From the NCBI GenBank assembly GCA_003971905.1, contig RSEE01000055.1:186001-250000 (forward strand): a DNA stretch of 64,000 nt. The letters run 5' to 3'. Origin of the DNA: Moniliella sp. 'wahieum'. Its lineage: Eukaryota. Of the stretch, positions 15,031-60,647 are shown piece after piece. A program made the position numbers and the translations under genes. Position 1 is the first letter of the stretch; each line of letters opens with the position of its first letter. The notes under the pieces are model-generated. The model was not told where the DNA came from, did not search any database, and saw only the letters and a list, made by a program, of their open reading frames with translations.

Positions 15031-16613
15031 TCAAAAGACAAAAGGAATGAAACGGTAGGGCACAATTTCGCAGTACTTGTCCCAGTCCTTGCCGTACTTG
15101 CGTGCGCAACGATCAAAGTCGCGTCCGCAGCGGTGCGTAAGGACGGTGAGGAAGAACGCAGCGTAAAAGTACGGGATGAAGGAGCCCGTGCCGGCACACG
15201 CGCCCCAGGTGAAAGACTGGATCCAGTCGGCGGTGTAGTTGGGCTTGCGAAGGTAGGCCCACCAGCCGTCGATCAGCAGCGCGTTTCCGTGTTCGGTTTG
15301 CAGGTACACAGGGTCGCGCAGCGTCGACCAGGGCCACTGGGGGAAGGAGAAGCGGGTCTCGATGCTGCCCTTTTGAAGCAGGATGCGGAAGCGCGACTTT
15401 GGGCCATGGACGAGTCAAAGACCCAATGCACAAACAGGAGCGTGCCAAACAGCGCCACGTACCCCAAGGTAGAAGAGGTAGGTGCTGGGGTCGTGCTGCG
15501 ACATGTACACGATCGAGTAGCAGTAGGTGAAAGGCACACCGGCCAAGTTCCAGTACGAGACGAGGAAACCGGCCTTCTCGTAGAACATGTCCCAGGTTTG
15601 CGGGATCAGCTCTTCGCCCTTGCAGCAGGCATTGAGGTACAGGCCAGTGGCAAGGATCATGCAAGCCATGTTGGGCGACACGTAGCCGTACTCATCGTAT
15701 TGCCGCGCAGCACCGGCCAAGGAAATCTCAAAGGCAGGACCCAAGGAATGCGCACCTCGGCCCACATCTTGAGGTCTACCACGCCAAAGCGAGGGTTGAG
15801 CGAGGCACCCATAAAGTAGTCATAGAAAAAGTTGCCACTCATCCGGTGCGTCGTGCCGTGCACGACGGCCGACACGTAGAGGATCAAAGGATAGAGGAAG
15901 CAGAGATGATGGCCACCGTCATATACTCACCGAAGTGATACATGATCGTTTGCAGTTGGTACACTCCGCTAAAGTGCAACGCGGCGGTGACAACCAGCGT
16001 AGCATACAGAGAAGAAAGCGCATTGCACTTGTACCACAACGTCTTGTATCCAAGAGACGGCACAGGCAGACCCTCTTGCCAGTAACCAGGCATCACAACC
16101 GCAAGGAAGAGCTGGAACACGATCAGGCCGCCGTACCCGCGAATGGCACGCCAGGTCGGAAACGCCTCGGTGTAAATATGGTTCCCCATGCGCTGGATAA
16201 ATGGGTAGACGTCACTCAAGCTCGAAGGGTACACCAACTTGCCATCGTAGAACCAGAGGCAGATCCAGAGGTAGTACATGAGGGTAGGGAAAAAGACCAT
16301 CATGAACGCTGTGCCGACAGGACCACCAAACTCATATCTGGGGCAATGTGTCAGAGCTGAAAGGAGCAGGATAACATACATACTCATGGTGCTGGTCGAG
16401 CAGCTTGTCCTTCTCGCGGCCCTGCTCGGAGATGACGATGCCCGGCTGATGGTGGACCATCTCGTTGCGCGCCTTGATGTTGCCCCACACAATCTGAGGA
16501 TCGCGTGGGTCAGGGTGGCGCCAGCGGTGGTTGTAGGGGCCCTTGGTCTTGGGAACCTCGGCCGGGTTGACCTTGGAGGCCGGCTTGCGTTCCCGCATGC
16601 CCTCAGACGACAT
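15031..16613 (-). CDS. ERG4: Sterol C-24(28) reductase (ERG4/ERG24 family)
   Basis: EYEFGGPVG after a 46-nt intron (16338-16383); SGNFFYDYFMGASLNPR; KGEELIPQTWDMFYEKAGF; LLIDGWW...RKPNYTAD; HRCGRDFDRCARKYGKDWDKYC. Confidence 0.92.
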
Positions 16614-17904
16614 GGTTGTGGTGGAGGCGTGGAGAAGGGAGCGGCCCTCAATCCTCAGCTGAGGGTTCTTCGCGGCGTTTACCCAATCCACCTCATCTTC
16701 CCAGTGTGCCGTCAGTCACGCGTCACGTGGCGGCAGGCGCAGACCGCGCCATTGTGGCCTCTGGCTCAAGGCCAGTGTAGGTTCGGGCCGCCGCGGCTTG
16801 ATCGATGGATCGTCCATTCAATATTCAATCTCAGACCCCAGGTAGGGTTACCGGCGGATACCGGCAGCGTGCGCTACCGATGGCCTCGATTGTCGCATTG
16901 CGCTTGCTGTGCCACACCTTCCCGCGCGCACGCCAGGCGTCCCAGCGCGTCCCTCGCGCCCGGCGAAGCGCGAATCCCTCAAGGGGTGGTCCACCTCCAT
17001 CCCCATCCCGGACCGGCTGACCTATCAAAAATGCATCTGGCACCGTCACCCGGTAATCTGCACGCCTGAGTTCCACCCTCCCGCCACGTTCTTTTCTGTT
17101 TGCTCCACTCCGCTGGTTCTTTGCGAAAATGGAGTAACGCAAATGGTGCGCTCACCAAACCTTGACGGACAGCTCTCCGTACGCAGACTGAATACGGGTG
17201 CAGGCCAGGATGGCTTCCAACGATGGCATATGTCCACACGGTGGAAACGGGCCGAGTTGGAGGCCATCTTGACGTTGCTTGGCCCGGGGCGCGCTTGGCA
17301 GCATACAGCACCCATGGTATAAATGAGAGAGCTGTTGAGCGTTGAGCTGATGGCTCGTGCTTTGGCCAATGTCCCTTCAGTTCCTCCTCAGGTCTAGGAG
17401 TTCCGCTGTTTTCCCTCTCCTGTTTGGCTCCTTGTCCTGCAGCTTAAACCCTGAGGCCTGAGGCTCAGGCCTGATGGCGACTCGCCGCTTGATGTTCCTC
17501 TGTAGGCATTGCTGGTTACCACAACCACCACCATCAGTGCGATTGCATCACCCACTCGAGGACGATCAGGACTCCAGGTCTCATCAAGAACCACCAGGTG
17601 TAGTTGAATCTCAACCGCATTGCGTCCGACAAGCGCATTTTTGCTTTTTTGAGGAGCTCCTGCTGACGCCCCCTCCCCCCGGCGCGCAGCCAGGCTGTGG
17701 CTGCGTCTTGAACTACCCCAGCGTGTGGGGGTCGTCGGGGTTCGCCGTTCACCTTGAACGTTGACGTGCAATCCCAAAATCCATGGCACGTTGTCATGTT
17801 GATCTCGATGGTCGCAGCACGAGTGTGGGACGCAAGTACGAGCGGTACAAGCGGGCTGTCGCATCCCTCTACTTGCTGAAGAGGTGAGCTGGGATGCCAT
17901 GAGC

Positions 17905-18943: not shown

Positions 18944-21900
18944 ATGTCCGACCCCCCCGCATCTGGTCCGCTGCCGGACGACACGGCATCGCTCTCCTCC
19001 CGCCGCCGTCTGCGCGACCGCTTCAGCCTCTCCCACTCCCGCACCCGCAGCACCCTCCCCAACCACCGACCACACCTCCTCCGACCAGGAGCCTCCCCCC
19101 GAACCCCACCCCCAGCTCCCTCCCGCTCCCGAGGCGCCAGTGCCAGAGCCAGTGCCAGCGCCAGCTCCAGCGCCAGATGCGACATCCCCTCCCCATCCCT
19201 CCCGCTCTCCGCCCGCACGCCCCCCAAGCCCATGCCTGCGCCCACCCACCTCCTCCCCACCACCAGCCGAGAAACCTGGCAGGGAAGCCCCTCCGCCCGA
19301 TGAAAGGGCGTCTGTTCCGCGCCCCGTCGACTCCCTCTTGATCCCTTTCCAGATACATGTCTCAGCGTCGGCAGGCCCAAGACAAGCTGATCGTCGGGTT
19401 TGCCGTGCTCTGCGGGGTGGTTGCTTTCCTCTCTGCCCACATCGCCCAGCGCTTCACGTCGGTTGGATTTATCTCGGGTTTGGCTGGCATTGCTGCCGCT
19501 GTGTACTGCCTTTGTGAGCGTATGGGTCGGCAGGATCGAGACGATATGTGGCTGGTCGAACAACATCTCGTCTCCACCTTGCGAAAGTGCGGGTGGAGCG
19601 AAGCCCAGATCATGTCCTTCTTATCCGGCAAGCCCGTCCAGCCCGACGTTGCTGTGCCGCCGTCACCGCGACGCGCGGCTCCAAGTGCCGGGGCAGGGAT
19701 GGCTCAAGGTGTACGCCAATTCCTCACAGGCAGCCGTTCCGAAAGCGTCGAGTGGGTCAACGCGCTGCTCAGCACGGTCTGCCTTTGATCTCGCCCATGT
19801 ACTTTGCTCCCTTCATCGATCTTCTCGAGGATGCGCTCATGCAGCAAGTACCTGGAATCGTATCCAATGCAAGGGTGGTGGAACTGGACCAGGGTCGGGT
19901 CCCGCTACGGCTCAAGTCGATTCGCCTCTTGCCACCCCAACAAAAAACCTTCTTGACGGGCACAAAGGAGTCGCCTGATTGGAACACTCACTCTGCCGAC
20001 TCCGTGGCTGATCCTGCCATCGATCCAACCGCGTCGTTTACAGAAGCGGATGAGTGGGAGGACTTGGGGGACTTTATCAATTTGGAGGTCTCCTTTCGTA
20101 CCGGGCCGCCTCGACGTTGAGCGAACGCAAGAATAAAAAGTCCAACAAGGTTAAGGCCAAAGCGGAAGAGAAGATCAACGAACAGGAGGCCGCCAAGCAG
20201 CAGGCCAAGAACGAGAATGACACTGCTTCCCTCGCCCCCTCCACCACTTCGTCCAAGAAGTCGACATTCCTTCGCTCCCTCTTCCACCGCCATGGTGTTT
20301 CCAACCGCAGCGACATGGAGTTCTCGGAGGACCAAAATCGGAAGCGGGGTATAATGCCAGTGTTTTTGGCGATGAGCTCACGTACCAAAAGGGTCGCGAT
20401 ATGATCCACATGCTCATGTACTTTCATGTCGGCATCAAGAAATTGGCCGACGCAGCACTACCAGTGTGGCTCGAAGTACTGGGCATCGAGGGCACGCTGC
20501 GAGTTCGGGTACAAATGACACCTGTGCTGCCTTTTATCAAACACATTGCATTTACCTTTGCCGGGGAGCCCAAGCTTGAGCTGGGTGCCAAGCCCTTGGG
20601 AGAACGAATGGTGATTGATGCGATGCAGCTTCCCCTCATCTCAACGTATGTGCTCAAGTCGATTCAACAAGTCATCTCGGGCTTTATTGCACCCAAGTCG
20701 TATGTGATGGACTTGCACAGTCTCCTTTCCATTGGAGAGGGTCCGCAAACAGCCTATGCTGTGGGGGCGATCGCGCTGATCGTTCACGAAGCCACTTCCC
20801 TCCCGTGGCTGACGCAAATGGCGAGGCAGACCCCTTTGTTGTTGCTGCCTTTAGCCGAGAGATGCGGCCGCTGTTTTCAACCCGGGTAGTGCTCAGCACG
20901 CGCAACCCGGTATGGCAAGAGTTTGGCATGATCCTCGTGACCCCCGACCTTGAGGCGGACCAATCGCTGCGCATCCTCGTCAATGATGCGGACCGGTTCT
21001 CGGCGGACGACCAACTGGGACAAGTATCCTTCCCACTTGCGCGTCTACGTTCCCGCGCCCAGCGACGCGCCATTACAGCTGCGCGTAATGGGGCTGGGGT
21101 CAAGCAATCCCTCGCCCTCGCAGCAAGTACCTTTGAGACGCGCACCCTCCCGCTCCAGCCCATCGACCCAGACCGGCCCACGCAGGGTACGATCAAGCTT
21201 TCACTGGCCTACATCCACCTCGAGCCCCACCTCTACTCGACAGTCAAGAGCATTGACGATGAACTGAAACGCGATCGGGAGCAAAAAGAGAAACAAGCCG
21301 AGCGCAAGAGGATCCGGCAAGCCCAACTCCAACGCATTGAGGCGCTCCGAGCCATGGGGCGGGATCATCTCCCTTCAATGCTCCGATCCGATTCGGGGAC
21401 CGAGTTGGGGGACGTGGCTTCTATCGCGAATACGCCAGGGACGCCCGGGACACCTGGGACACCCGGGGAAGAGGAAGAGCAGGTGAAACCCGATTTGGCG
21501 GAAGAGTACGACCAGTTCTTGACTGGCTTTGACCAGTTGTCTCCAAGTTGGGAGTGCCACTGGATGAAGAGACGTTGAAAGCGCGTAAGGACCGGGCGGA
21601 TCGGATCCGTAAGCTGACCTCGCTCATCACGGGGGAGCAGGACCAATCGGATGCGCCTCCTCGGGATAGCTGGCGATCTGGCATCCTTAGTTATCATGTG
21701 CACATGGTCGACCGCCTTGAACCTTTCTCCCAGGATAAAACGCTTTCGGGACGGTCCAAGCGGGCGGGTGCCACGCAGGGCTTCCGCCAGGCCGCGGCCC
21801 AGTCGGGACTGGTGGCCAATGCGGTCCCGCTCCCGTCGCCGTACGCGTACATTGTGGTGGATGACGAGCCTGTCCTTCGAACGCGCACGTCTCCTCTCAA

Positions 21901-23630: not shown

Positions 23631-24032
23631 ATGCTCCCGTTGCTGTGCCCAAGCCGAGAGCGAGCCGGAGGGAGCTGCATCTCTTGTGTATCATAGTGTA
23701 TCAAGCGAACGGACACCTGTACCGATTCTACTACCCTATTCTTCCCCCCTGGGCGAACAACCCGGGTCCAGTCTGGTCACAGTATAATATGAGACGTTCT
23801 CTTTCTAAGCTCACCGTGAACTAGTACCCACATGTAGCTACTTCCTCCGTCGGGAGAACACCCTACAACTAAAGTGTTGGATTGGTTGGAGCTTCAGAAA
23901 CGCATAAGCTACGCGTTAACTCGCCTAGCTCAGTTGTCAGCCTACGCGACGGCGTACGAGAGCAAGGCGAGCTGCCCTTCCCCAGCCCAACTGAGCAGAA
24001 CGGATAAAAAGGCCAGCCCAGGTAAAAATTTC

Positions 24033-24118
24033 CTCTCCGACCGGGAATCGAACCCGGGTCTCGTCCGAACGTCTCCCAAGATGACAGGGACGTGTCATAG
24101 CCACTAAACTATCGGAGA
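24033..24118 (-). tRNA. tRNA-Asp(GUC) with 14-nt intron (24068-24081)
   Basis: Acceptor TCTCCGA/TCGGAGA + G73; D-loop AGTGG; anticodon stem CGTCC/GGACG around CT-GTC-A; T-arm CCGGG-TTCGATT-CCCGG; T5 Pol III terminator just downstream. Confidence 0.95.
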
Positions 24119-25327
24119 AAGATGTGCGGCGCTGCATTTTCGCTAACAACTACGGCTGCATCGGGGGCCACAAACACCCCAACACCCTTCATTCGACGTT
24201 CGTGTTCAACTGAACGTTCAACGAACTCACAATTCAACATCGAAGTTCAACGCACCTTTCCACGTATAGGTCCGTTGATACTGAAACACAACTGCAGCTC
24301 TCTCTTCAAGCTTCACGGCATTTCTATCGTTGGAGCTTTTCAGGCCCTCAGGCCTCAGGCCCCTCAGGAGACAAGCGAACTCGAATACCCGACAACCGCT
24401 GGCCTACTCCTTCCATCTACTGAGAATATCGCGATTTTTTATCTCTGTTCAGTCGTTGAGTACGCGTTCTGAATTCTGAGATCGAGATCTGAGAATCGGC
24501 ACTGGAAACGTTAAGCGCGTTAAGCTGTGCCACGGCTGTGCCTCCGAGTGACTCCTTCTCGGAAATCACTTCAGTCTCACTAGTCACATGCATCACATGT
24601 TACAGTAACTATGAGCGCTGAGCATGAAAAGCTTGAAGTGACAGTAGTGACTAGTGATGAAGAGCGAGCAAAAAGCATACAGCGGCGAGATTTACTTGCA
24701 ACCGTGCTCTACAACAAGACTGATCTCCATCAAAATGAATTGGGATCGGGAGATATTATAGCTGTGCCGTCGGTAAATTACCGTGTGTTGCATCGAAGAT
24801 TGTAATAGGTCTACTCTTCTCCCGATGACCTGTGTTCCCCTTCCCCTGTTGCACATCTCTTCCCTTACACTACTCAGTCTGAGTACTCATTAGGAATTCA
24901 TAAGGAAAATCGGATCGGTCGTTTCGAAGTGAGGCGCGAGAAGGACAAGGAATTATCGGGGCCGAGATGTGTGCAGCAAAATGTAGCGATCGAGAGAGAG
25001 GGGCATAAAAGAAAAAACACAGCTGCCCACAGGAAAACAGGTTTTCCTGGTGAGGCTCTGGGCATGATTGATATGACAACCAACGGATCAAACCCCACGA
25101 CGGAAAGAGTGTCCAAATAAAACAGGCGGTGACACCTGAGAGGGAAGAGAGGAAGAGTAATAGAGGGAGGAGGGAGGAGGGAACATTGATGAACTGTGCA
25201 TATATGTGATCATCGCTACGCCGGCCCTGACGCCCCTTGCATCGATGGGCGGGGCGTGGACCGTGCGCGGATGGAGTGGACACGAGAAGATGTGGGTGTG
25301 GGCAAACACGAGGACGACCAAGACCGT

Positions 25328-29267: not shown

Positions 29268-31909
29268 TTACAAGTCCTCGTGGGCGGGCACCGTGGGCTT
29301 CTCTGATGCCGATGACGACGATGAAGAAGCGGACGAGGTAGCCGACGCCGAGGACGAAGCGGTCTGTTTCTTGGGAGGACGCGTCTTAGGAATGCGGCGT
29401 TTCTTGAGCTTTTTGATCTGCTCGGCCAATTTGGTGTGACGCTTTTGCACATCGGCAACCAAGATGACCGGATCTTGCTTGGGGTTGCGCTTGGCCTGGA
29501 CTTCCGTCCCTTCAGTGAGCCACTTGTCGTCCTTTGTTGATGGAGTTGGACAGCGTGTCCAACTCGGCAGCACTGTACTTGGATGCCGTCCCCTCTGCCA
29601 CGGCCTGGGTCAAGTTGGCCTTGGCTTGCGCCACAAACACGCGTGAATCCTCTAGCAGTTCCCGGAGAGCGGCCACCGCCCAGGCCTGCGGAACGCCTCC
29701 TCTGCTCTCTTCTCCACAGCAGACACTGCCTTCTCCATCTCGGTCAGCCGGAGGCGAAGCACAGCAGCGTCCGCCGCCTCCCCTTCCTCGGCCAAGAAAT
29801 TGAGGTTGTCCTCGGCGCCAGTGAGAGCAGTGTTGCGCTCGGCCGATGTAGAGTAGGTCCAGAACTCCGACTCTTGGTCCGCCAGTGCCGGGTCGGCCAG
29901 TTCACGGACACGATAAGCACCCTCTAGCAAGTTGCGCAGCTCCTCGCGTTGGACCCGCCGTTCCTGCTCACGATCAATGGCTTGCAGACGATCCTTGCCC
30001 TTCTTGAGCTGAGGCGCAGCCAGCGGTACATACGGGCCCGTATAGCTCGTCTCTACTTGAAGAGCAAACGTTTTGGGCCGCGTCACCTGCTCGGTCTCGG
30101 TCGGCCTCGGTCTCGGAGGTGGTAGAGGTTTCGTTGGCTTCCCCTGTCGGCGTCGGCGTAGCGGCCGCCGAGGACGAAGTAACGCCGAAAAAGCCTTAAG
30201 TGCAGAAGCAAGGCCACCCTTGCTAGCAGGCGGGTCCACCAGGAGCTGAGCAAAGCCACCAGCAAAAGTGCCAAGCGGCTTGCTTGCAATCGTCACGTTC
30301 ATACTCGTCTTCACGTCCGACATGAGTCCCTGAGACTGCAAATCAGCCAGGGCAGACGAGATTCCAGTAACGTTGATCGTGGCGTACGGCTGACCGTCGG
30401 CACGGAGCGAAAGGACAAAGTCTTCCTGGGCATCGGCACCAGTATATTGGACCAAGTGGCTCTCCTTCAATGGCGTCCCAGGGCTGATGAGCACAATCGA
30501 CTCCTCATGGCCGTCCCGTTGAGCCGAGACAGGGTGGAACGCAGCGTCGAGCGCACTCACACTCTTCATCCGGAACTGGGGGTTGAACGAGGCGCCGTAG
30601 AAGGCGGCCCCCATCACATTCGCCTCGTCGGCATTCACGTTGGCGGCAAAGGAGGTAACGCCAGCGTCACGGAGTGCCTGTTGAACCAAAGGAACGCGTG
30701 AATTGCCCCCCACCAAAACAACCGAGTTCACGTCTTTCAATGCAAGGCCCGCACGAGCCAGCGCATCCGTCACAGGCGAGCCAAACTTGACTGTGAGCCC
30801 CGCCGCAAGTGCAGCCTCCTCCAGCTCTTCCCGCGAAAGGGTGCCACGCCAATCCGCATCCTCCGCCAGTGACTCGACGCTGCTTGTGGCGACTGCGTTG
30901 GCGGAGAGGACGTGCTTGACACGCACCGCCTCCCGGAGCAGGCGAGACATGGCCCTCGGGTTCTGCTGTACAGGTGCTGCCAGCGCCTTTCCTCCCTGCC
31001 GGCGTAGCTGCAAACTTTTGCGCCAACAGGTCGCGCACCAGCACGTCCAGGGCCAAGCCACCCGCGTTGCGCGACCAGCCGGCGCCCAGCACCTTGAGCG
31101 TGGTCGTCTCCTTGGGCGTCGTACCAATGGAAGGAAGGATGCTGTCGGGTTGAACCTGCTCCGTGCGGAACTCAACAATCGACGCTTGGGTGCCGCCGGC
31201 ACCCGAGTCGTAGAAAATGTGGCGTTCAGGGTGGGGAAGGTGCGGGTCAAGGCATACGAAGTTGCGGCCGCCAGACCATCCGATACGAGGCGGGGCGCAT
31301 GCCGGCCAACTGTGCCGCATCAAACAACGCTGCCCGCTCCCAAGGAGTAAAGTAAACGGGAACATGAGTACCACATCCAGGCCGCCCAGACTAGAGGGCA
31401 TGCTAGAAGGTAAGAAGAACGAACTTGCTCCCCCGCGGTCTCTTCGGCCAGCTTACGCATGTGCGTCAGTTGCATGGCAAGGATTTCTTCGGTGAAAACT
31501 CTGCTCGGAGGTGGCGCGGCGCACTTGGATGCTTCCGTTGGAATGGCGCACGTCAGCGAAATGGAGGGCAGAGTGGAAGGCAGCCGCAGGATCGGCAGCA
31601 GAAGGAGAACCGAGCAGGGCCTTGAACGCTGGAACGAATCATGGGGCACGGGGACGAAGCAGCATCAGCATCAGATCCAAACAACCTCTCCTCGCCCTTC
31701 CAGGCGACCGAGGAGGCAACCTTGCGCTTGGAGTCGCGTCCCAATACGACATCAAACGGGACGCCAGGCTTGATGAGGGCGCCTTTCATGAAGGCCGTGC
31801 CATAGTCGATGGCGACGACGCCCATGGCGTGTGCCGAGGGAGCCAACGCAAGGACAGCGACGAGCGCCAAGAGCGCCGCGAACAACGTGCGCCCAGCGCG
31901 GAAGCCCAT
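29268..31909 (-). CDS. LHS1: ER lumenal Hsp70-family nucleotide exchange factor Lhs1/Grp170/HYOU1
   Basis: Signal peptide; VVAIDYGTAFMKGALIKPGVPFDVVLGRDSKRK; IFYDSGAGGT; VKHVLSAN; VVLVGGNSRVPLVQ; NVNADEANVMGAAFYGA; C-terminal HEDL. Confidence 0.92.
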
Positions 31910-44292: not shown

Positions 44293-47183
44293 GGGCGCGG
44301 AAGCGGAAGACCCAATGTCAAGGCAGGACACGATGACATGGTGAGGAGGTACAGGCGCAACAACGATCAAAGATCGATCATCGATCATCGGACAACCCCG
44401 TCCCAAGCGAGCGTCGGAGCAGAGCGATTGATAGTGAAGTGATGGTGAGTTGTTCCCAACACCGACATCAAAGAGCAAAAGAGGATATGAAAAAAGGGTT
44501 ACTCGGTCAGTACCAAATGCCGGCACTTTTGCCCATACGCATGTTCTCCCTAACGGTGAGAGGCGCCATGCACAGGCGGGCCCATACGCTCGACACACTC
44601 CACTACTAGCAACCCACTGGGGTACCACCGCAGGAGAGGGCACAGCGGATGGACACCATCATGCGCGCCACCCCCCAACCGCAGCCGTACCCGAAAGCCG
44701 ATGGGGAGTGGCCCTAGTCTCCCAGACCCGCCTGGCAGCGCAGGGCACCCGCATCAAGCTTCAAGCTTCAAGCTTCAAGGGCACCAAGACCTGAAAACGA
44801 AACATACCTGTGATTGTGAATGAGACGCGTCGTAGTCAATTAGCCATATGGGAAGCTCTCCGTATGCGCTAGCGCCACCTTTGAGACCGGCTACCCCATG
44901 CTCACCATCGTTGTCTACAGAGGACGCGGCAGGGAAAGGGGCCGGGGTAGAGAGGGGGGCGGAAGGCGTGGCGGGTAGTGGGAGCGGTGGAGGGCGGGAG
45001 GGGCGGGAGGATCAAAGGCAATGTGGGGAGGTTGGAACGCCGCTGGGGACTGGAGGTGGGAAGGGGCAGGAGAGGAGGGGTGGGGTTGGCTAGGTGACGG
45101 TGCAGAGGTCGGGATCATGGCGGGAGACGGATGAATGCGGAGCTCACGCTGGGATCAGCGCGTGGCTGCGTTGGCTAACAAGCAACGGACAGGCAGCAGC
45201 AGGAGTGGCAGGTGGAGCGAAGGCGGGGAGGAGGCGGGGGTGTGGGGGACACAGCCATGGCCGCGCGCTTCCGGGCGCGCTTGCAAGAGGACGGAGGGCG
45301 AGGGCAAGAAGGAAGCGGGGGAGAGATGTGCGGGATGTGCGGCGAGCGGCGGAAGAAGGCGCGAGCACAGGGACTAGTGGCTCGTGAGACTGGCCCGACG
45401 GGACCGCGTGGTGTGGTGGCAGTGGGGCTGCGTGCGGGTGGTGGGTGCTGGGCGCGTGGAGCAGCGCGAGGGGATGGATGCGGCGCAAGTGGTGGAGGGG
45501 GCGGTGGGGGAGCATCCACGAGCACGGTACAGGTGGGCACGCCAGCGGACGAAGCCGTGGGAGCCAGCGGACGCCAGCAGCGCCCGCAGTCCGCGTCAGC
45601 GTCAGCACTCAGCTGCCCAGACCAGCCACGCAAGCTCTCAGCCTCCCGCCTCAGGCCTTCGGGCGCACGGCGTCTGATCGATCTGAGCGTCTGAACAAAA
45701 CAAAAAAACCAAGCCCTGGGGGGCTGGCTGGCCAGGGTGCAGTTCGGGCGGGCTGCTGGTGACTTTGAAGCGCCGTTGCGAACCCCGTCCTGGACCAGTG
45801 ACAGACCGTGCGTGGCACGTAACACGCACCTGTCATGGACCGCCTACCGGCTACCGGCTACCGCTGGTCAGCTGACCGCGTGGGCGCTCGGGCTGCGCTC
45901 AGCGCGCTGAGCTGAGCTGGGTCTACTAGCTGGTACTAGCTGCTGAGACTCGCCGCGCTGAGGGCGCTAAATAGAAGGCGCTCAAGGGCCTTGCGGAGCT
46001 TGTACGCACATTCCTGAACCTCAGAGGAGGCGTACAGAGGGCCTCTGCCTATCCGCCTTCGTCCTACCGTGTGGCCGGCTGGAGTTGCAGCCACGCGCCA
46101 CGTCCGATTCGGGGCCAGAAGCGCCAAGCGTAAAACATACCCGGCAACCGGTAGCCGGTAGCCGCTTACCTTCTGTCTCTCTCTGGGTGTGCACGAGCCC
46201 ATGTCCGAGTGGAAAAGAGAGCCCCGGAACCGCATGGAGGGACATCGACTTTTGCCGTAGCCACAGCAATCAACTCGCCCCGAGCTACTGCTGTTGGTAC
46301 CATCAAGCAGTACCGGCTGTTCGTCTGTTGAGCGCTGAGCATGGAGCAACACTGCCCACGGCTGACGCCACCGCCCAGGCTGCCCAGAAAAAGCCCTTCA
46401 ACGAGTGATTGAGACCGTTCGAAGGGCCACAGACAATGAGGCCCTTTGGCTTTGTTAGTTGGGATGGAGAAGAGCCCACTCGATCTCTGGCAGGATCTCG
46501 CATCTCGTACTGCACAATGCCTCATGCGTGCAACAACCGAAAGCATTCGATGTTGCGACCGTCTTTTGTGCTGCGAGCAGATCCACAGTCGATTCGATGA
46601 TCGATGAACGTACCGGGGCTTTGCAGCGGGTGGGTGTGATGATGAATTCGACGATGGAATATGGACTGATGGGGACTCGGCGATCAAGCTGGCCATCGAT
46701 CAAGTTTTCCCTTGCCCGCCCCACCACTAAGTACTATCCGTTCATCGGTTCTACGTTATGGATCTGCCGATGGCGTCGGCAGTCGGCGGCTGACTAGCAG
46801 CTAGCTAGCTTGGCTATGCGGGGCGTTCACACTGAGCTCACCGTGCTGACAAACTGGGCGGCTACTGTGGACTAAACTAACTCATTGTCTGAGATCTGAT
46901 CGATCTCTGATCCCTTTTGTCCCATATTCCCCCCATCAGTACTCAGTAGCCCTATCTACACCTTCCGCCACCGACGGCCGTAATTAACGTAATTATATCT
47001 ACTTACAGTATCCTTGCCTCCAATCCTGCCGTCCTCATCATGCCCCCCACGCCGCACCACGCGCATGCTCTTCATGAGTATCATTCTGGAGTCCGGACCT
47101 TGATACAATCCCTAATGGTTATTGGGGGCCTTCATGGCCCTGCGGAAGAAAGCGAAGGGAGACGGGATATGAGCCCGACAACG

Positions 47184-47231
47184 TTACTCGCGTTTGAACG
47201 CAATCTTCTTGGCCTGGGCACGGTCCATGCC
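47184..47231 (-). other. ERG25: Orphaned original 3' end of ERG25 (GMDRAQAKKIAFKRE*)
   Basis: Removing the element and one TSD copy restores a continuous frame ...RRLIAKG-MDRAQAKKIAFKRE-TAA. Confidence 0.88.
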
Positions 47232-47471
47232 TGTTGGCCTAGGGAGCCGGACGGGCAGAAGGATGAGGAGAAGGTGATGGATTGGAGCCAGAGTTGGGTC
47301 TGGGTACAGAGGCATCTATATAGGAGGCTGGACTAGGCACAGGGACAGTGAGTCACACAGGAGAGAGTGCAGGGCACAGGGACAGTGACACGCAGGGACG
47401 TCAGCGTGGAAGCCGATGGAACCGAGGCGAACCTGGTCTACCGACTGGGAGCCAGAGGATCACAGTCAACA
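47232..47471 (-). repeat. 3' LTR (240 bp)
   Basis: TG...CA ends; internal CTATATAG TATA-like box. Confidence 0.93.
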
Positions 47472-48194
47472 CCCCCGCTGGCCAGGGAACCCGGAGACAT
47501 CGGTTGTGGGATGAGCTCCTGCCAGTGGATGTAGAGAGGGGAGGACTTGAGTGGCAACCGGGACGAATGGCCTGGAGTTGTGCATGGCCACACGACTGGC
47601 CTACACCCCCGCTGTCCAGGATGACACCTGAACGAGCCGAGCGCTTGTGGTTGGTGTATTGTGCGACCGCCAGATGCTTGTAGAAGTCTTAGAAGTAAAA
47701 GTAGTAGGGGTTGCGCCCCGAAGCGATTTGGTGGGCAAAAGTAAAAAGCACCAGTTATAGGTGTAGTGAAAGAAAATTGGAAACTTGGAGTAAATGCGGT
47801 CCAAGGTCGTTTGGCATCAAAATTGGATGCGTTTGGTAGTTGTTTGGTTCCGCATGCCTGGTGCCAGTGGGGTCCATTGGGCATGGGAAATGAACGGGCG
47901 CTATGCGTCAACCGTCTTGATCTGTTTGGGTTCTCTTTGTTGTTGAAAAAGAGGAGTGGAAGAAGTTGGGTGACCACCCCCCCCCATCCTTTCCCCAGGT
48001 GCCCCGGATGAATTGGCAATCCGGGGCGTGTAGCCGTGGGTGGGGCACTTGATGAGCAGCCACCCCCGCTTTCTGCGATTCGCCTGCGCCGTTTTGTCGT
48101 TGGAGGAATTTCGTCTCGTTGACGATACCCGACACGTTTTGTTCCGTCGTGTGTTGTCCCTAAAAATCATTGCCCCATCTGTGGGGGACGAGTG

Positions 48195-48270
48195 TGCCGA
48201 TTGTGGCGGTAGTATGCCGATTGTGGCGGTAGTATGCCGATTGTGGCGGTAAGGTGCCGATTGTGGCGGT
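48195..48270. repeat. 20-bp tandem repeat (TGCCGATTGTGGCGGTAGTA), about 4 copies, inside the LTR element
   Basis: Read directly from the sequence. Confidence 0.95.
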
Positions 48271-48392
48271 GGTGTTGTTGGGCGGGAGGACGGGTGTGTC
48301 TTGTGGGCTTGGCGGCTTAGCTTGGGCTTGTAGGCTTGGGGGTGGGCTTGCTTGAAGAGCGCTCCCCTTCCGGGGGGATCAGATTGTAGCTC

Positions 48393-48631
48393 TGTTGGCC
48401 TAGGGAGCCGGACGGGCAGAAGGATGAGGAGAAGGTGATGGATTGGAGCCAGAGTTGGGTCTGGGTACAGAGGCATCTATATAGGAGGCTGGACTAGGCA
48501 CAGGGACAGTGAGTCACACAGAGAGAGTGCAGGGCACAGGGACAGTGACACGCAGGGACGTCAGCGTGGAAGCCGATGGAACCGAGGCGAACCTGGTCTA
48601 CCGACTGGGAGCCAGAGGATCACAGTCAACA
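48393..48631 (-). repeat. 5' LTR (239 bp)
   Basis: Near-identical to 47232-47471. Confidence 0.93.
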
Positions 48632-49614
48632 ATGCCCTTGGCAATCAGCCTGCGCATCTCCTTCTGGTTGGCCCTTGCTTGGTGGTAGGTGCCCTCGGTG
48701 CCCATCATGTAGTCCCACCACCGGAACGAGGAGGCGTAGCAGCCAATAAACGCTTGGTGGTGGTGGTCGTGGTGGTCCGCGCCGGCCCAGAAGGAAGAAT
48801 GTGGCGGAGGCTAAAGGGGAAGTCGTACCCACTGTGCGAGTCAACCGCTTGGAACAGACGGAAAGAATCCAGATGTACACGGTGACCAGATGCACATTGC
48901 CCGTCATGTACGCCAGCGCGAGCGGCCCACCAATGGTGCCCATTCCCAACGAGAGCGTTTCGAGTGGGTGTGCGTACTCGGCGGCCAGACCAAAGGGAGC
49001 TGCACGAACACGGGTTAGTAGCGAGGCCTACCGGACATCCATGACCACAGCAGGGAGGGAGCGGACGTACCAGCATATTCATGGTGCTTCTTGTGAATGT
49101 AGCGGTAAAAGGGACCCCAGTGGAACAAGCGGTGAGCCCAGTAGTGCCACGTGTCCTCAATGACGAAGAAGATAGCGATTTGCCAGGCCATGGTGGTGAG
49201 CGCAGGGAACGGGACCTCATACGTTGCCAAACCGAGGTATTGGCACATGGGGTGGAACCCCCAAATTTGGGGCAGCTCCACCGTAAAGTGGCTAAGGAGC
49301 ACGTACTTGGTGCACTCCCATTGGTCCCGCCAAGTAGGCACCTTGTCGTCTTGGATCTTGTATTTGCGCAGGGCCGGGATGGCGTCAATGATGATCCAAG
49401 GCACAGAACGACCAAAGTACAAGAGCTCATGGAGGACAAAGCTCATCACTCCGGTCGCAATGATGGGGTTGTCCCACCAGAGGTACCATTGCACCCACCC
49501 CTTCTCAAACATGTTGAGGCTGGCATAGTCCACGCCTTGGTACATGGCGGCGCCATGGACGTCAACATGCGGGTTGACGAGTCCCTCAAATAAGGTTGTC
49601 GCATTGAACGACAT
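48598..49614 (-). CDS. ERG25: C-4 methylsterol oxidase; C-terminus now supplied by the LTR
   Basis: [15 protein letters not shown]; His boxes [44 protein letters not shown]; intron 49000-49070; stop TAG at 48598-48600 inside the LTR. Confidence 0.93.
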
Positions 49615-50491
49615 GTTGATGACCGATGAAAAAGAAGGTGGTGGAGAAGACTGGGTGGGATGACAAGGTGGGAGACGAGAGGCAAAGTGGGGCTGTGGAC
49701 TCTTATACGTCTCTCGCGTTTCTTGCTTGCTTACCGGATGGATCCAGCCGATGGGCAAACAAGGGCAATGCGCGCGTCGGATCTTCGCCCTGCCAGACCA
49801 GCTGAGAGTGGCCGCTTGGGCACTGACGCACTGTGCCGTGATGATCTCATTCGCCCCTCTCCGGCTGGGTAAACTACATGGCAAGATGGCCTGCTCATAT
49901 AACCTGAGCCGCTCGCGCCTATAGGCCAGAGACACGCTTGGAAGCACCAATGGCGCTGCCATTCTGGGACGACAAAACACACTGGTCCCAAGCGGTAGGT
50001 TGTGCGCCAAACCCTAGCAGTCCTCTCCCGAGCTGTCAATGCATATTGGTTTCAATATTGAAGCTTTGAAAATTTTAAATTTTAGAGGCGTTCACGAGGT
50101 GGCGAACGTGGCCACGACAAACTCGCATCTTGGTCCTACGACCTGAGGGCCTGAGGCCTCGCAGCCAAGGCAAAGAACCGCTGCTTGCTAGTTACGCCCC
50201 CAGGCTCAAACTCTCCGCATCTCCAGGTAGGATTTTTTATTGCAACAGCTGGCCCAACCAATAAGGCAGTATGGCACAGAGCTACATGAAAAGGTGGCAT
50301 GGAGGGGACGGCCAAGGGCCAGAGGCCACGGCCAATTTTGTAGGAGTGGAACATGCGCGAGGGCAACATGAGGGCAGGGCGGACTGGTGGGTGCACACTG
50401 CACCAAACATAGCGGGACAAACAGAGATACAAAGAACCACCCTTGAAAGAAGACCCAACGGCATCATGTTCAAGGCGAACGGGCAAGGCAT

Positions 50492-53268: not shown

Positions 53269-55563
53269 CTACCCCAAACGTGCATGGGGTGGCAGGGGGT
53301 CTTCGATCTGCTCCTGCGGAAGTTTCTCAATAAACGCCTTGACGCACTTGACCATCGTCGGGGACGCGCGGCTGATTGGGTCGGTCTGGTAAAAGTTCTT
53401 GATCGGGTTGACCAAGGGCGCACCCGTTGCTTCCGCCAGATTCCCGCCGGCAATCAGCTGGTTCAAGCCCAGAAGCGCCGTGGCGGGCTGGTGGGCTCCG
53501 CTACATCGTACCGCACCAGCGTCGGGGAGATGTCAAACAGCCGGTCACGCAGCTCCAACGTACTGTCGTACGGCAAGGTCACCCCCACCTCCGACAAGGC
53601 ACGAACAATCTTCCAGTCCTCCCGGCTCGCTCCGGGCGGAGGCACGGCAGCACGGGTAAGCTGAGTCCGGCCTTCGGTGTTAACATACGTCACACTCTTC
53701 TCCGTGTACGCTGCGCCTGGCAACACCACATCGGCATACTGCGCACCCACATCACCGTGGTGTCCTTGGTACACCACGAAGGCTTCCTCGGGAATCGAGG
53801 CAGGGTCAAAGTCGTCAGAGTTGAGAAGGTAAATGAATTTGGGCTCCGTCTTCTCGGCCGCCTTGGAAGGTGCAAAGCCAAGCTCGTTCGCTCCGTTGCG
53901 AGAGGCCGTACGTTGCAGAATGCTGAGCCCGTTCCACTCGGGCGTGAGGAACTGGGCCTGGTGTTGCTTGATGTGATTGGCAATGCCACTGAGAATGTGT
54001 TTGCCATCCGCATTTTCAGGACCGCGCTGCCCACAATAATCATCGGTTTCTTGGCCGCTTGGAACTTTTGCGCAAACTCCGAGGAACCAGTCAGGGCTTC
54101 CTGCAACGCCGTGGCGTCCGTACCCAGATGAGCATAGTCGTACGTCAAGTCTTCCGGTTCACCCACCAGCCCCAGATCCTGTCCCAGACGAAGGAATGCC
54201 TTGCGCAGACGAGCATTGACCAGCGTCCCCTCGTGCCGCGGGCTGGTGCCGACCACAAAACCACATCTGCATCTTCGATCCCAGCAATCCCAGCGTTGAA
54301 CGAGTAGTTGGAGCGAATCGACGCATTGATGCTGGTCTTGTCGCCGCCAGGCAAATCAATGGTAGTGTTGTCTGAACCCAGCCGGTTGATCAGGTCCTTG
54401 AGCGCGGCGAGCGACTCGGTGTCGGCCAACGCACCCGCTACCGCCTTGATCTCGTTCCCTTGGGCTTGGGTCGAGATCAGCCCGGCAGCAATTGACGCCA
54501 GTGCTTCGGGCCAAGTAGCGGGCACGAACCGATCGCCCTGTTTGATGAGCGGGGCCGTGAGGCGCTGGTACTTGAGACCGTCGACGGCAAAGCGCGTCTT
54601 GTCGTTGATCCACTCCTCGTTGACATCGTCGTTGGTACGGGGGAGAACGCGCATGACCTGCACGCCCCGCGAGTCTACACGAATGTTTGAGCCAACGGCA
54701 TCAAGTACATCGATGGACTCGGTGTTCTTCAGTTCCCACGGACGCGAGTGGAACGCACCGGGCTTGCTCGTCAGCGCACCCACAGGGCACAGATCAATCA
54801 CGTTGCCCGACAGCTCGGAATTGAGCACCTGCTCTACATACATGCCAATCTGCAGGTCGTTCCCACGGCCCGTCGTGCCCATCTCTTGCACACCGGCAAT
54901 CTCGTTGGAGAAGCGCACACAGCGAGTGCAGTGAATGCAACGCGTCATCACCGTCTTGACCAAGGGGCCCATGTACTTGTCCTCTACCGCACGCTTACCC
55001 TTGACTTCATGGAAGCGGCCGCGGTCCGCACCGTAGCGCATCGACTGGTCCTGCAAGTCGCACTCCCCGCCCCAGTCGCAGATAGGGCAGTCGAGCGGGT
55101 GGTTGGACAGCAGGAACTCCATCACGCCTTCCCGCCACGAGTTGACCTTGGCCGAGGTGGTGCTGATCACTTGCCCCGGCATGGCGGGGAAGGCACACGA
55201 GGCAAGCGGTTTGGGCGCGCCCTTGCTCTCGACGAGGCACATGCGGCAGTTGCCCGCCACGTTGAGGCGCTCGTGGTAGCAGAAACGCGGGATCTGGGCG
55301 CCAGCCTGCTCGCAAGCCTGGATCAAAGCCGTGCTGCATATGCAGAGGTCAGCAGGGAGGGGGGGTTAGAAAACGGGAGGCGGAAAGAGGACATACCCCT
55401 GCGGCACCTCGATCTCCTTGCCATCCACCGTGAGCTTGATCATCTTGATGTCGGCGGCGGCGGCGTGGGCGACGCGTGCCGAGGTGGCGAGGGCGGCGGC
55501 GAGGGCGGGCGCATGGGGGCGCGACACGCGCGCCAGCGGGGCAAGCGAGGCGCGCAGCAGCAT
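53269..55563 (-). CDS. NDUFS1: NADH:ubiquinone oxidoreductase 75 kDa Fe-S subunit
   Basis: Presequence; [105 protein letters not shown]; intron 55334-55396. Confidence 0.97.
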
Positions 55564-55843: not shown

Positions 55844-58800
55844 TCATCGTACTGATATCTGCCCCTCAGGTGCTGCCTGCACTGCCTGTGCGCCCGGCGC
55901 GCGCATCCCCCCCCCCGCCGGCCGCCGGCCGAGTGCGGCCGCCGGTGCGGCTCCTCCGTCGACAGCGGCGAGAAGGGCCGTGGCCCCGGCTCGGAGCGCG
56001 TCGCCGACACGGCACTGGCCCCCGGACTGACCACCATCTTGTCCCGCGACACCAGCACGCTCTCCCCCCGCCCGGCCGAGACGGGCGGCGTGCGCCGGGA
56101 CTGCTGCCTCTTCTTCCCGCCCCCGTCGCCCTCCGCCACTCGACATGCGGCGCCGTTTGGCCCCGGCACGCGGTGAGCCCGCCCCCGCTGTCCCGCGTTC
56201 ACGCTTTAGCCGCCCGCCCATTCGCACCCGTAGGAAGCGCACTGCGGACGCTGGCCGCACTCGCTGCGCTCGTCGCACTGGCGGCATTGACGCCCGTGGG
56301 GGGGCACCGCTACCGTTACCGGACAACCGAGCGGTCGTTGGCGCCGCCGGCCCACTCGGCACACTGGTGGGTCCCCTCGGAGGCTGAGGCTGAGGCTGGT
56401 ACCGCACCCCCCCCGCCAAGCCCAGCAATGCATCCACCGCCCCGCTATCCGCCTCCTGCAGTTCCTCTTTCCCGCTTTCCTCCGAGTCCGACTTGCGGGT
56501 CTTGGTCTTGCGGCGCGCTCGGGGCGACGCGCGGGGCTGCTGGGGATTGGCGATGGGTGGGGAAGGGGTCAGGCCCGGAGCAGATACGGATACGGATGCG
56601 GTGCGGCTAGGACCAGGCTCAGGGTTACGCCGCGCCGGGTCTGCGCCCGGCCCCAGTGGCTGGGAGGGCGGTAGCTCGCGCTCGGCTGCTACTGCGTCCG
56701 GGCGCTCGGCTCCGACCCCCGGCCCGATCGGGCGGGGGGCGGAGGTCGGGCTGCATGACAGGAAAGCCGCTTGGGCGCGCAGCTACTGGCACGCCAGGCC
56801 CGAGGCTATGCAAGGCAGGTACGTTGGCATCCGGCACGGCAGGCGCATTTTCGCCTTCCCCTGCCTCGTAGGAGCCTGTGAGATACTGCGCTGTCGTACT
56901 CACATCCAGGGCGTGGGCGGGGAGCGCGGAGGGATGGGCGTGTCGTTGGGCTCGGCAAGGAAGGTGCGCAAGCGGGCAGCGATCACGGGGTTCCGGGTCC
57001 AACTGGGCAGCCCGCACGTACGCGTCCCGTGCGTCCTGCCGCTGGTTGTTGCACGTTTCGTACAGACAGCCAAGGTTGAACCACACCTCGGGGATGCCAG
57101 GGTGGAGCTGGATGGCGCGGCTGAAGGCATCGAGCGTGTCTTCGTACTGCTCAATACGGTAGTACAGCAGGCCGATCGAACACCAGAACGTGGCTTGGTT
57201 CCCATCGCGGAAAACAGCCTGCTGGTACGCCTCGTACGCCTTGTCGTAATTCTCTTGGGCCATCAAGGCGCGGCCGAGAAGGTACCAGGTCTGAGCATCC
57301 GCCGCATCGGCCTCGAGCGAGATTGTCAGATACTCCACCGCCCGATCCTGGTCGGCAAAGGGGGTTTCAGAATGGAGATAGAGCCCCCCCAACTGCTGGA
57401 GCACCTTGGCGTGCTGCGGTAACTCGCGAGCACACGCTCGTACGCTTCTTTGGCCATCACAAAGTCCCGCTGTAGCTCGCACACGTGGCCCACCTGGAAC
57501 TGGATATCCGCCTGCTTCAACGGCGCAGGCGGATCGGGAAGGATGTAGCGGAAACAATCGAGGCTGGCAGGGAACTTGCGCTGTTGCTTGTAGATCACCC
57601 CGAGCCGGAAAAAGATCTCGTTTGCCTTGTCAAAGTCGGCATCCATGCTCACCACGCTAGAAAAGGCTTGCTCGGCATGCTCCAGCAGGCCATACCGGTC
57701 GTACAGGATCCCAATCCCGTACCACAGCCGCGGCTCCTTGGGGTTGGAGAGGTTGTAGAGCGCTTTCTGGTACGCCGCATACGCACTCTGCAAGTCGTCC
57801 ATCATCAGGTAGCAGTGGCCCAGCGCACCCCACGTCTCCCCGTCCTCAGGGGCAAGCTGGAGCGCGCGCTGCAACACTTCCACCGCCTTGTCCTGCTGTT
57901 CCATATCCCGGTACACATTCCCCAGCGCCCGATGGGCCGCCAACGAGTGCGGCTCGTGCTGCAGTGCGTTCTGTATCGAATGGATGGCTCGTTCGTAGCC
58001 ATCCGGGCCGCCCATCGTCGTTGCCGCCGAGGCTGCATGGGGTGGGAGGTTAGCGCCGTATCAAAGCGAAGCAAAAAGACAAAACAGAACCAACAGGTAC
58101 GCACCAATCGACAACCAGGTTTCCACGTTGGCCTGGATCAGTTCTTTCATCACCCCTACCGCCTCTCGGACGGGGGAGGAAACTGTGCCGAAGATGGACG
58201 GAGAGGAGGCGAGAGCTTGGTCCCAGCCGCATCCGCCTCTGCATCCGCGCCCGCAGCGATGGCAGTCGTAGCAGGGTCATTGGCCATCCTCAGCCTCCGC
58301 CCAGCTGTGGCATGAACAGGCACGGGCGCCACCACACGTCCCGCTGCCGTGGCCGCCGCTTCCATCGGCTCTTCCCGTAGCAGTGGCGACCGTATCGGAA
58401 GAGGCATCCTCCCCATCGTGGGAGCTGCCTCAATGCGCTGCGCCTCAACTTGAGCATGAGCAGTCTCCATGTGGTGGGCATGAGCTGCGGCTTCCATCTG
58501 GGCCTGAGCCTGAGCCTGAGCCTGAGCTGGGCCTGAGCTTGAGCCTGACCTGAGCTTGAGCTTGAGCCTGAGCTTGAGTATGTGCTTCAGCCTGTGCCTG
58601 AGCTTGGGCTTGCGCTTGCGCCTGTGCATGAGCTTGGGCTTGGGCTTGGGCTTGGCTTGGGCTTGTGCCTGAGCCTGAGCTTGAGCTTGAGCTTGGGCGG
58701 CCTGGGCCCGTGCTTGAGCTTGGGCTTGAGCTTGGGCTTGGGCTTGAGCTTGGGCTTGAGCTTGGGCTTGGGCTTGAGCTTTTGCAGCTTGTGCTTGAGC

Positions 58801-59911
58801 CTGGGCTTGAGCTTGGGCCTGGGCTTCAGCTTCAGCCTGAGCCTGGGCCTGAGCTTCGGCTTCGGCTTCAGCTTCAGCTGCAGCCTGAGCCTGGGCCTGG
58901 GCCTGGGCCTGGGCTGGCCTTGCTTGAGCTTGCGCATGTGCTTGTGCTTGAGCATGTGCTTGCGCTTGTGCATGAGCCCGTTCCTCTTCGACCTCGTCCG
59001 GCTCTGGAGGCGCAGTATAGGGCGGAAGAAGGCTCATGGCCACACCCTGTTGGCGGTTATGATCGTATTCCCGCTCGTATGCCATCAAGCGTTCGCGTGT
59101 CCGCTCAACAGGAGGCAACACATGCAGTGCATGAGGCCTCGCCGCGCATGGTCCCGTTCCCACTTCCTCCCACTCTCGCTTCGGCCGATCCCGCTCCTCG
59201 GCCATCAGGGCGAAGGGTGGCGCGCGGCTCCCCCTGGGCGTGGGCAGCTTGTGCGTGTGCTTGCGCTTGTGTTGGGCATGGGCTTGTGCTGAGCGTGGGC
59301 ATGGGCATGTGCTTGGGCTTGGGTTGGGCGTGGGCATGGGCCTGGGCCTGGGCCTGAGCATGGTACTCGTACTCGACTCATACTCTCTCTGGGCGCGCTC
59401 GCGCTCATATGCCGCATGCGCCTCGCGCTCCTCCCATGGCACCTCCCCGGCTGGCGAGGCGACGCCTCGTATCGCCCGCGCCGAGGCGGCATGGCAGGAT
59501 GCCAGGGGGAAGCATGCACACTGCGTGGCGGCGAGCGGAGCGGAGACCCGGGCGCCATGGCGGGGACGGGGTGGGGCCCGTGCGGGCGGCAGGCGAGTAG
59601 TGCGGGTGGGGATGGGCCAGGACCGAGGGCGGGCGGGCGGGCGGATGCATGCGGGCGTCGGGATCGGGATCGCGCTCGCGGCTGGCATAGCGCGCAGGGT
59701 AGGGCGCGGGCGGTAGGCCGGCTCAGCGTCGTACGCGGCGGCGGCGGCGGCGGCGGTAGGGCGGGCGGTAGGCGGGCGGCGGCGGCGGGTAGGCCGGGGG
59801 CTGCCGGGCGGCGGCGGCGGGGCGGCGTAGGCGTAGGGCGCGCATAGACGTCGGGCACGGGGGGGCCGCGCGGGGCGGCGCGGCGGGCGGCAGACGCTGG
59901 CTGTAGGCCAT
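55844..59911 (-). CDS. SSN6: General transcriptional co-repressor Ssn6/Cyc8 (TPR), frameshifted; ends approximate
   Basis: TPRs: [77 protein letters not shown]...[14 protein letters not shown]...[26 protein letters not shown]. Confidence 0.92.
58495..58978 (-). repeat. Coding hexanucleotide-period repeat encoding (QA)n in Ssn6
   Basis: CAGGCT/CAAGCT/CAAGCC/CAGGCC units on the minus strand giving AQAQAQ... Confidence 0.92.
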
Positions 59912-60647
59912 CGAGGGAGCGGGAGCGGGAGAGGTGGTGGATGCGTCCTCGATCGGCGGCGGCGAGAAACGGCAAGAACAAAGCAACCCGCGGGGAGCGT
60001 CAGCGGTGGGCACATGCATGGCACCAGTGACATGTGACTGGTGACGATGACATACATGATGCAATCGTTGGACTCTGTTCCGAGGGAAACGACGAGAATA
60101 TAGAATAGCTCTCTGCATCCCTGCAGCCTGCGCATCTGAGACTGTACCCTGGCGGGTGATGTATGTAAACGCTTAGCGCTTACTAGTTGACGTTGAGCTA
60201 CTAGTTGCGCGTTGCGTTCCTCGGACTCAGATGCATGATCGATACTCCATCTACTCAGTACTCACGCTTCAAGGTACTCAGGACGCAACCCTCAGCGCCT
60301 GAGTCAGGAGTGCAATAGCGCATAAGCCATCGACGTGGACGGTGGACCGTGGACGGTAGCCAGTAAACGTTGGGCCGCGGCGCGTGGACCTTGATGGACC
60401 TTGGACAGTAGACCGTGGGCCGTGGAAGTTGAGTACTTGAGTATTGAGTACGTTGAATCGATTAAACTCGATTACCGGATTACCGATTCAACGTAGGACG
60501 ATGCGCGTGGCACGATGGCAAAACGTGGTCGGCGCCAGGGGGTGGCGAAGCGTGGCAGTCAAGCTCCCATCTATTTCTCCCGCTCGCTTGATCGCACGCC
60601 ACATCCCAGCACGTACTGTCCGTGTCACACACACTGGCCCCTTGGAG

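Follow-up and report, generated by a model that had tools for sequence, protein, structure and literature searches.

A young non-coding long terminal repeat element in the last exon of a putative ERG25 gene from Moniliella sp. 'wahieum'

The window analysed here is a stretch of 64,000 nucleotides (nt) of contig RSEE01000055.1 (positions 186,001 to 250,000 of the forward strand; assembly GCA_003971905.1) from the fungus Moniliella sp. 'wahieum', and all the coordinates given below are those of the window. Between positions 47184 and 49614, the window contains a minus-strand gene that, judged by the similarity of its protein, is a homologue of ERG25, which encodes the C-4 methylsterol oxidase. 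The last exon of this gene is interrupted by a non-coding element of 1400 bp (47232-48631), which has two long terminal repeats (LTRs) and is flanked by a duplication of its target site.

The interrupted gene and the inserted element

The first exon of the gene (49071-49614, minus strand) comprises 181 codons and one further nucleotide, and encodes the first two histidine clusters, HRLFH and HKKHH. This exon is separated by an intron of 71 nt (49000-49070; GTACGT...CTAAC...CAG), the two sides of which are contiguous in the homologues, from a second exon, whose portion upstream of the insertion (48634-48999, minus strand) carries the third cluster, HHDHHH, together with two frame breaks of 1 nt that leave this cluster in another frame in the sequence as assembled. 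The protein encoded by exon 1 is 87% and 77% identical to two exon-1 gene calls (P0001 and P0002, respectively) and 64% identical to a Thecaphora frezii protein that is named as a C-4 sterol methyl oxidase. In the homologue search with this exon, 318 of the 327 scored candidates had E<=0.001, and the named proteins among the 120 homologues listed were mostly annotated as ERG25 or methylsterol monooxygenase. Of these 120, only P0092, without any Pfam entry, does not carry PF04116 (FA_hydroxylase). The open reading frame (ORF) of exon 1 on its own scores 30.6 bits against the Pfam cut-off of 31 for this family, given that only the first 40 positions of the profile fall within the exon. The gene thus resembles Erg25 of Saccharomyces cerevisiae in belonging to the same enzyme family and in having three histidine clusters. 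No second ERG25 was found in the 64-kb window, which is also as far as the search for paralogues proposed in the initial annotation extends.

The structure of the inserted element was defined by a repeat scan of positions 46000-50000, which identified a pair of direct repeats, LTR A (47232-47471, 240 bp) and LTR B (48393-48631, 239 bp), both with TG...CA termini, beginning with TGTTGG and ending with CAACA. In a global alignment, the two are identical at 239 of the 239 aligned positions, and the only difference between them is an indel of 1 nt (GG versus G at LTR position 129), with LTR B being short of one G between 48520 and 48521. Directly outside the element, a perfect 5-bp target-site duplication, ATGCC on the plus strand, is found at 47227-47231 and again at 48632-48636, where a 5-nt match would be expected by chance with a probability of 1/1024. 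LTR A contains a TATATA motif at approximately 47316-47321 and a degenerate 18-bp repeat (47338-47399), whereas the internal domain (47472-48392, 921 bp) contains a 20-bp tandem repeat in four copies (48191-48270) and, adjoining LTR A, the G-run AGCGGGGG, read on the minus strand. A blastn search of the window with the whole 1400-bp element recovered no second copy, only the self match and the reciprocal matches of the LTRs, and the self-priming complementarity of the element does not exceed 5 nt.

The element lacks coding capacity. Of the 25 stop-to-stop ORFs of at least 34 amino acids (aa) that overlap the core, 24 have no Pfam match and the remaining one has a match at chance level (E=0.083); the two largest ORFs of the element belong to no Pfam family, and the longest (242 aa) returned 0 matches in a phmmer search of 1.84 billion representative proteins. 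Indel noise splits the ORFs of this assembly, yet fragments of gag or pol domains would be expected to score in Pfam anyway. The Rfam search of positions 46900-48900 returned only two chance-level matches to RsmY, both located within LTRs (scores of 18-19 bits, where the gathering threshold is 57; E of at least 0.09), so that the LTRs lack a small-RNA gene of the type that distinguishes the LTRs of Cassandra elements.

The element is, then, a bona fide LTR retrotransposon insertion with a target-site duplication and no coding sequence. It belongs among the non-autonomous LTR retrotransposons, is similar in a loose sense to a terminal-repeat retrotransposon in miniature (TRIM), and represents a new member of the known class that groups TRIMs with large retrotransposon derivatives (LARDs). 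With these elements it shares two short LTRs (240 bp), TG...CA ends, a 5-bp duplication, the absence of gag and pol, and, presumably, copying in trans, and it may have been mobilised in this way by an autonomous relative. It differs from them in size, given that its 921-bp core and total length of 1.4 kb exceed those of the classical plant TRIMs and fall far short of those of LARDs. Classical TRIMs have internal domains smaller than 921 bp, and the broader usage of the term, which includes non-coding elements of less than 4 kb, takes this element in. TRIMs are annotated routinely in surveys of fungal transposable elements (for example, PMC3562529, PMC4112212, PMC5689174, PMC10652580). As there are 0 substitutions across 239 bp of LTR, the insertion is young; its age is recent, and any exact figure would hinge on the substitution rate that is assumed.

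The displaced tail and its replacement

The insertion point falls between codons G304 and M305 of a protein of some 318 residues. On the far side of the element, the displaced 3' end of ERG25 (47184-47231, minus strand) is preserved as the G codon, 14 codons that encode MDRAQAKKIAFKRE, and the stop codon TAA (47184-47186), and it is now located 1405 bp from the rest of the coding sequence. When the element is excised together with one copy of ATGCC, the frame is rejoined to read ...AKG-MDRAQAKKIAFKRE*.

The antiquity of this ending can be assessed through relatives that were found by searching with the genuine portion of exon 2, which recovered the exon-2 gene calls of the two nearest relatives. 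One of these, P0121, is 89% identical across the portion used as the query and ends in ...EMKRLMAKGVDRAQAKKIAFKRE, with the tail GVDRAQAKKIAFKRE, while the other, P0122, is 80% identical and ends in ...EMRNLMAQGMDRAQAKKIAFKRQ, with the tail GMDRAQAKKIAFKRQ. In tblastn, the last 15 residues of each map to 47231-47187, with 14 of the 15 identical in either case, and both ends fit the pattern G[VM]DRAQAKKIAFKR[EQ]*. The three sequences vary at several positions just upstream of DRAQAKKIAFKR, yet these 12 residues are the same in all of them, a contrast that points to a probable constraint on the tail in the clade. More distant members of the Ustilaginomycotina and other basidiomycetes have different tails, rich in Ala and Lys. 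Based on this comparison of proteins, the displaced fragment represents the ancestral end of ERG25, conserved in the clade, and it corresponds to the empty site at the protein level.

In place of this ending, the interrupted exon now runs into a new tail (48598-48633, minus strand) of 11 codons encoded by the LTR and the stop codon TAG (48598-48600), in which all but the first two nucleotides belong to the LTR. Whereas the native tail ends in AFKRE, the new one ends in LAPSR, and the letters of the new tail are found again both in the second LTR of the element and in record 9 of X3, one of the metagenome sequencing runs described below. The new tail has probably been read correctly, given that its coding sequence lies in the terminal 113 bp of the LTR (47359-47471), which show 0 differences from this independent contig. 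As a side observation, in record 9 (143 nt) the segment 47359-47471 comes immediately after the LTR end 47442-47471, in the manner of a 113-nt cycle, and both of the X3 contigs break off precisely where the LTR indel lies (47360 / 48521), which could be either an artefact of the assembly graph or a real variation between copies.

The possible role of these tails in retention in the endoplasmic reticulum (ER) was considered through the KKXX motif, defined here as K at -3 and -4, or at -3 and -5. The passages of PMC4448988 and PMC8028809 that cite Bard et al. 1996 attribute to yeast Erg25 three histidine clusters and a KKXX signal. The gene of the window differs from that of S. cerevisiae in this respect, with FKRE in the native tail and APSR in the new one instead of a C-terminal KKXX, and the motif is absent from the native tail, the new tail, and the relatives (AFKRE, AFKRQ).

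These features show that the element was integrated through a 5-bp staggered cut between the G and M codons. The transcription unit thereby lost its native 3' untranslated region (UTR) and the 14 codons that preceded the original stop, and the LTR brought a tail of 11 residues and a stop codon into the frame. The transcripts of ERG25 may now end in the LTR or beyond it, and, if the frame breaks of exon 2 are errors of the assembly, the real allele would encode a full enzyme with an intact catalytic core and a swapped tail. In the excerpts of the literature on ERG25 and retrotransposon insertion that were surveyed, no natural LTR insertion in the coding sequence of ERG25 was apparent.

Removal of the element from the messenger RNA was considered as a further outcome. 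Insertion alleles of retrotransposons can truncate or replace the 3' ends of genes, or they can be spliced out, as in the waxy alleles of maize. The ERG25 insertion is similar to the waxy-type alleles in that an LTR element lies in a transcribed exon and supplies a new stop codon and, probably, new 3'-end signals, but differs from them in that the element is surrounded by poor splice signals and in that the allele is known here from its DNA. The interval 48560-48760 has no GTRNGY donor, and in 47200-47400 there is no branch-like CTRAY motif. The only splice that would restore the frame exactly is a GC...AG intron of 1.4 kb, against the 71 nt of the native intron, which would start at the second base of the upstream duplication and end with the CAG at the edge between the LTR and the duplication. 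Given the lack of a consensus donor or branch, and the fact that this long non-canonical intron is the only one available, the splicing of the element from the messenger RNA, with the restoration of the native tail, is unlikely.

Most of what the initial annotation had proposed for the insertion site agrees with these results. The ATGCC duplication at the G and M codons of ERG25 is confirmed to the base, and the proposed pre-insertion frame is recovered as G-MDRAQAKKIAFKRE* at 47231-47184 (minus strand), with its counterpart in P0121 and P0122. The displacement of the native tail and 3' UTR, put at 1.4 kb, measures 1405 bp, and the absence of a canonical KKXX from the native tail follows from its ending in FKRE. 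The LTRs, being free of substitutions, bear out a very recent event, and the splicing event that had been named as one of the observations that would overturn the proposal is improbable, given the poor signals around the element. The description of the element as TRIM-like is appropriate as regards its non-coding nature and its short LTRs, and less so as regards its 921-bp core, which is larger than those of the classical TRIMs.

Frame breaks, metagenome traces and neighbouring genes

The state of the coding sequence upstream of the insertion was determined by a tblastn comparison of exon 2 with P0121, which aligns in three abutting pieces, in frames -1, -3, and -2. The first piece covers residues 24-69 of P0121 (frame -1, 49000-48863), the second, residues 71-93 (frame -3, 48860-48792), and the third, residues 94-147 (frame -2, 48792-48631). 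The site of residue 70 holds only two nucleotides, and position 48792 is counted in both of the neighbouring pieces, which indicates that one base is missing at approximately 48861-48862 and another at approximately 48792. In the sequence as assembled, the third histidine box and the new tail are thus out of frame with exon 1. The three pieces are 89%, 100%, and 87% identical to P0121, in comparison with the 87% identity of exon 1 to P0001, and there are no stop codons within them. As exon 2 is as conserved as exon 1 and is free of stops within its pieces, there is no sign of decay in ERG25.

Similar breaks are found in neighbouring genes. The gene of the 75-kDa subunit of NADH dehydrogenase, NDUFS1 (53272-55365, minus strand), is cut into overlapping ORFs, whose Pfam Molybdopterin matches cover the profile positions 1-112, 112-197, and 194-353 without gaps. 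Deletions of 1 nt can be read at two of its joints (...DADVVL/(L)VGTSPRHE... and ...GSAVL/.NADG...), and a third frame change is located near 53500, with the C-terminal domain in yet another frame. The ERG4/ERG24-family gene (15034-16654, minus strand), in turn, is divided into four pieces with contiguous profile positions, which correspond to two frame changes and a compensating pair that flanks an in-frame stop at 15415-15417. The most affected is the Lhs1-like gene (29292-31903, minus strand), in which an ungapped tblastn comparison with the relative P0151 revealed 11 frame changes over 2.6 kb, with both query and subject contiguous throughout and no intron-sized gaps. A different pattern is seen in the Rab and DHFR genes, whose breaks have gaps of 50-95 nt and resemble introns.

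Overall, the coding sequence of the window has roughly 1-4 single-base indels per kb, and the two breaks of ERG25 in 0.9 kb are within the rate of the neighbouring genes. Given that the same defect is present in the Lhs1-like gene, NDUFS1, and ERG24, the breaks of ERG25 most likely represent the noise of an unpolished, probably long-read, assembly rather than biology. The lone difference between the LTRs, in the length of a G-run, fits the same noise, and the LTRs are best treated as identical. One implication is that frameshifts, apparent pseudogenes, and differences between near-identical repeats in this window can be interpreted only with the reads at hand.

These breaks affect three of the earlier proposals. 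The reading of the current frame, with its stop in the LTR, holds for the local junction and the TAG at 48598-48600, but this frame is not continuous with exon 1 in the assembly. Likewise, all three histidine boxes are retained as sequence, as had been stated, but the third is out of frame, and the two 1-nt gaps had been overlooked. The claim of a tolerated insertion allele goes beyond what can be read from the assembly, in which the ORF is broken twice upstream of the insertion. The changes in localisation, sterols, or drug response that had been proposed along with it are conjectural.

The best shares of words between a sequencing run and the locus were 0.11, 0.07, and 0.05, no run contained the whole locus, and no RNA run was among those listed as sharing it. 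Four runs were compared, in which the pieces covered were 46973-47205, 48081-48350, 47359-47471, 48372-48521, and 49353-49601. A contig of run X1 is identical to 46973-47205 (233 nt of the 3' flank of ERG25), which indicates that X1 contains the species itself or a strain close to it. Also found in X1 is a 270-nt stretch of the element core that shows 6 differences, and X3 has a piece of the junction between the core and the LTR with 2 differences in 150 nt, and these variant pieces fit a multi-copy family of slightly different copies.

A further contig of X1 (record 2, 5089 nt), with a depth approximately tenfold higher, shares only two words with the element, both at LTR/core junctions, one of 18 nt (48379-48396, core/LTR B) and one of 21 nt (47465-47485, LTR A/core), which are 4.8 kb apart in the contig and colinear with the element. 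This contig, seen here through its shared words, may be a lead, and only a lead, to a relative of autonomous size that shares cis signals with the element. Exact scans of metagenome contigs with a 25-nt word from the LTR end and a 21-nt junction word gave 0 matches each.

The position of the host fungus can be assessed through the Lhs1-like protein, whose named matches, down to that of Malassezia (E 3.9e-50), are to Ustilaginomycotina at 33-41% identity, with the exception of one record labelled Cichorium endivia; the weaker named matches that follow are to Xylariales and Coemansia. This protein evidence places the fungus in the Ustilaginomycotina, far from any member that has been annotated. 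Metagenomes of food and wastewater also contain this little-studied lineage.

Other features of the window were recorded. The ERG4/ERG24-family gene is a second gene of the ergosterol pathway, located 32 kb from ERG25, with Pfam positions 4-432 distributed over its four ORF pieces. Two tricalbin-like genes, with an SMP_MUG190-like domain and C2 domains, are found 8 kb apart on opposite strands (8139-11742, minus; 19518-21575, plus), and both are split into several ORFs. A long low-complexity stretch (58448-59354), which reads as Ser/Pro-rich sequence or as Leu/Gly/Glu repeats in several frames, sits inside an ORF of 701 aa (58159-60261, minus strand). The single tRNA call (24032-24119, minus strand; 88 nt, anticodon CAT) is presumably intron-bearing, and it matches neither of the candidate primer-binding sites of the element that are given in the following section.

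Readings of the insertion allele

The account that best joins these results is that a non-autonomous LTR element of 1400 bp was recently integrated into the last exon of ERG25, with the exchange of the tail of the encoded protein, and this account is probably correct. Some observations do weigh against it, or against parts of it. The reading frame of ERG25 is interrupted twice in exon 2, and none of the pieces covered in the metagenome runs spans either of the junctions of the insertion or either of the frame breaks. The conserved tail of the relatives argues that its loss would not be neutral, which is awkward for a freely tolerated allele. The internal domain of 921 bp is beyond the classical range of TRIMs, even if the length of the LTRs (240 bp) fits, and the priming signals are equivocal in both orientations. 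In the plus orientation, a TGG is found 7 nt after LTR A and a G6A purine run 15 nt from the other LTR, while in the minus orientation, which is that of ERG25, AGCGGGGG lies directly against the LTR, but there is no TGG after the opposite one. In a comparison of the primer-binding site with the one tRNA gene of the window, the best shared word was 8 nt long and in the wrong place, a result that applies to this single tRNA.

One alternative is that this copy of ERG25 is a dead pseudogene, in which the frameshifts are real and the LTR element is simply another lesion, with the function being supplied by a paralogue or the other allele. The two breaks of exon 2, taken with the insertion, would be expected in such a gene, the conserved tail of the relatives suggests that a working gene should keep it, and a second copy may lie elsewhere, since the search for paralogues covered the 64-kb window. 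Against this, identical breaks of 1 nt are found at an equal or higher density in neighbouring housekeeping genes (the Lhs1-like gene, NDUFS1, and ERG24), exon 2 shows neither extra amino-acid divergence nor stops within its frame pieces, the displaced tail of 15 codons is still intact, and the window holds no second ERG25, all of which makes a pseudogene quite improbable. An artefact of the assembly, whether a chimeric long read or a misjoin, is far harder to credit. The base-level quality is low and no independent read crosses the junctions, but a misjoin would not yield an element that is complete, has both of its LTRs and TG..CA ends, and is flanked by a perfect duplication of 5 bp, nor would the removal of such a sequence be expected to restore both the reading frame and the exact tail of the relatives.

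On the other hand, the insertion may be real and have little effect, with the native tail still being made, either because the filled site is heterozygous, subclonal, or specific to a strain, or because the element is removed from the messenger RNA. The substitution-free LTRs and the intact displaced tail point to a very young event that may still be polymorphic, and the splice that would restore the frame exactly is formally possible as a GC...AG intron. This splice would, however, have to proceed with neither a GTRNGY donor nor a CTRAY motif, over 1.4 kb rather than the 71 nt of the native intron, and no contig of the empty site was found, although none of the contigs covers the site; this alternative is unlikely. 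A recent integration that exchanged the end of the ERG25 protein is thus retained as the preferred account.

A more demanding version of this account is that the insertion allele is the only ERG25 of the fungus and encodes an active enzyme, in which the DRAQAKKIAFKR tail has been replaced by the LTR peptide and the messenger RNA ends in the LTR. This version is unlikely. It would amount to a natural swap of both the tail and the 3' UTR in an essential sterol gene. In this case, the level of the enzyme or its retention in the ER would be changed and, hence, the sterol profile or the response to antifungals. Should such a sole-copy allele prove to be real, nature would have carried out an experiment on an essential enzyme of the ergosterol pathway, with its C-terminal tail and 3' UTR as the parts altered, and the allele would point to a family of non-autonomous LTR elements that is currently active in a poorly sampled lineage of basidiomycetes.

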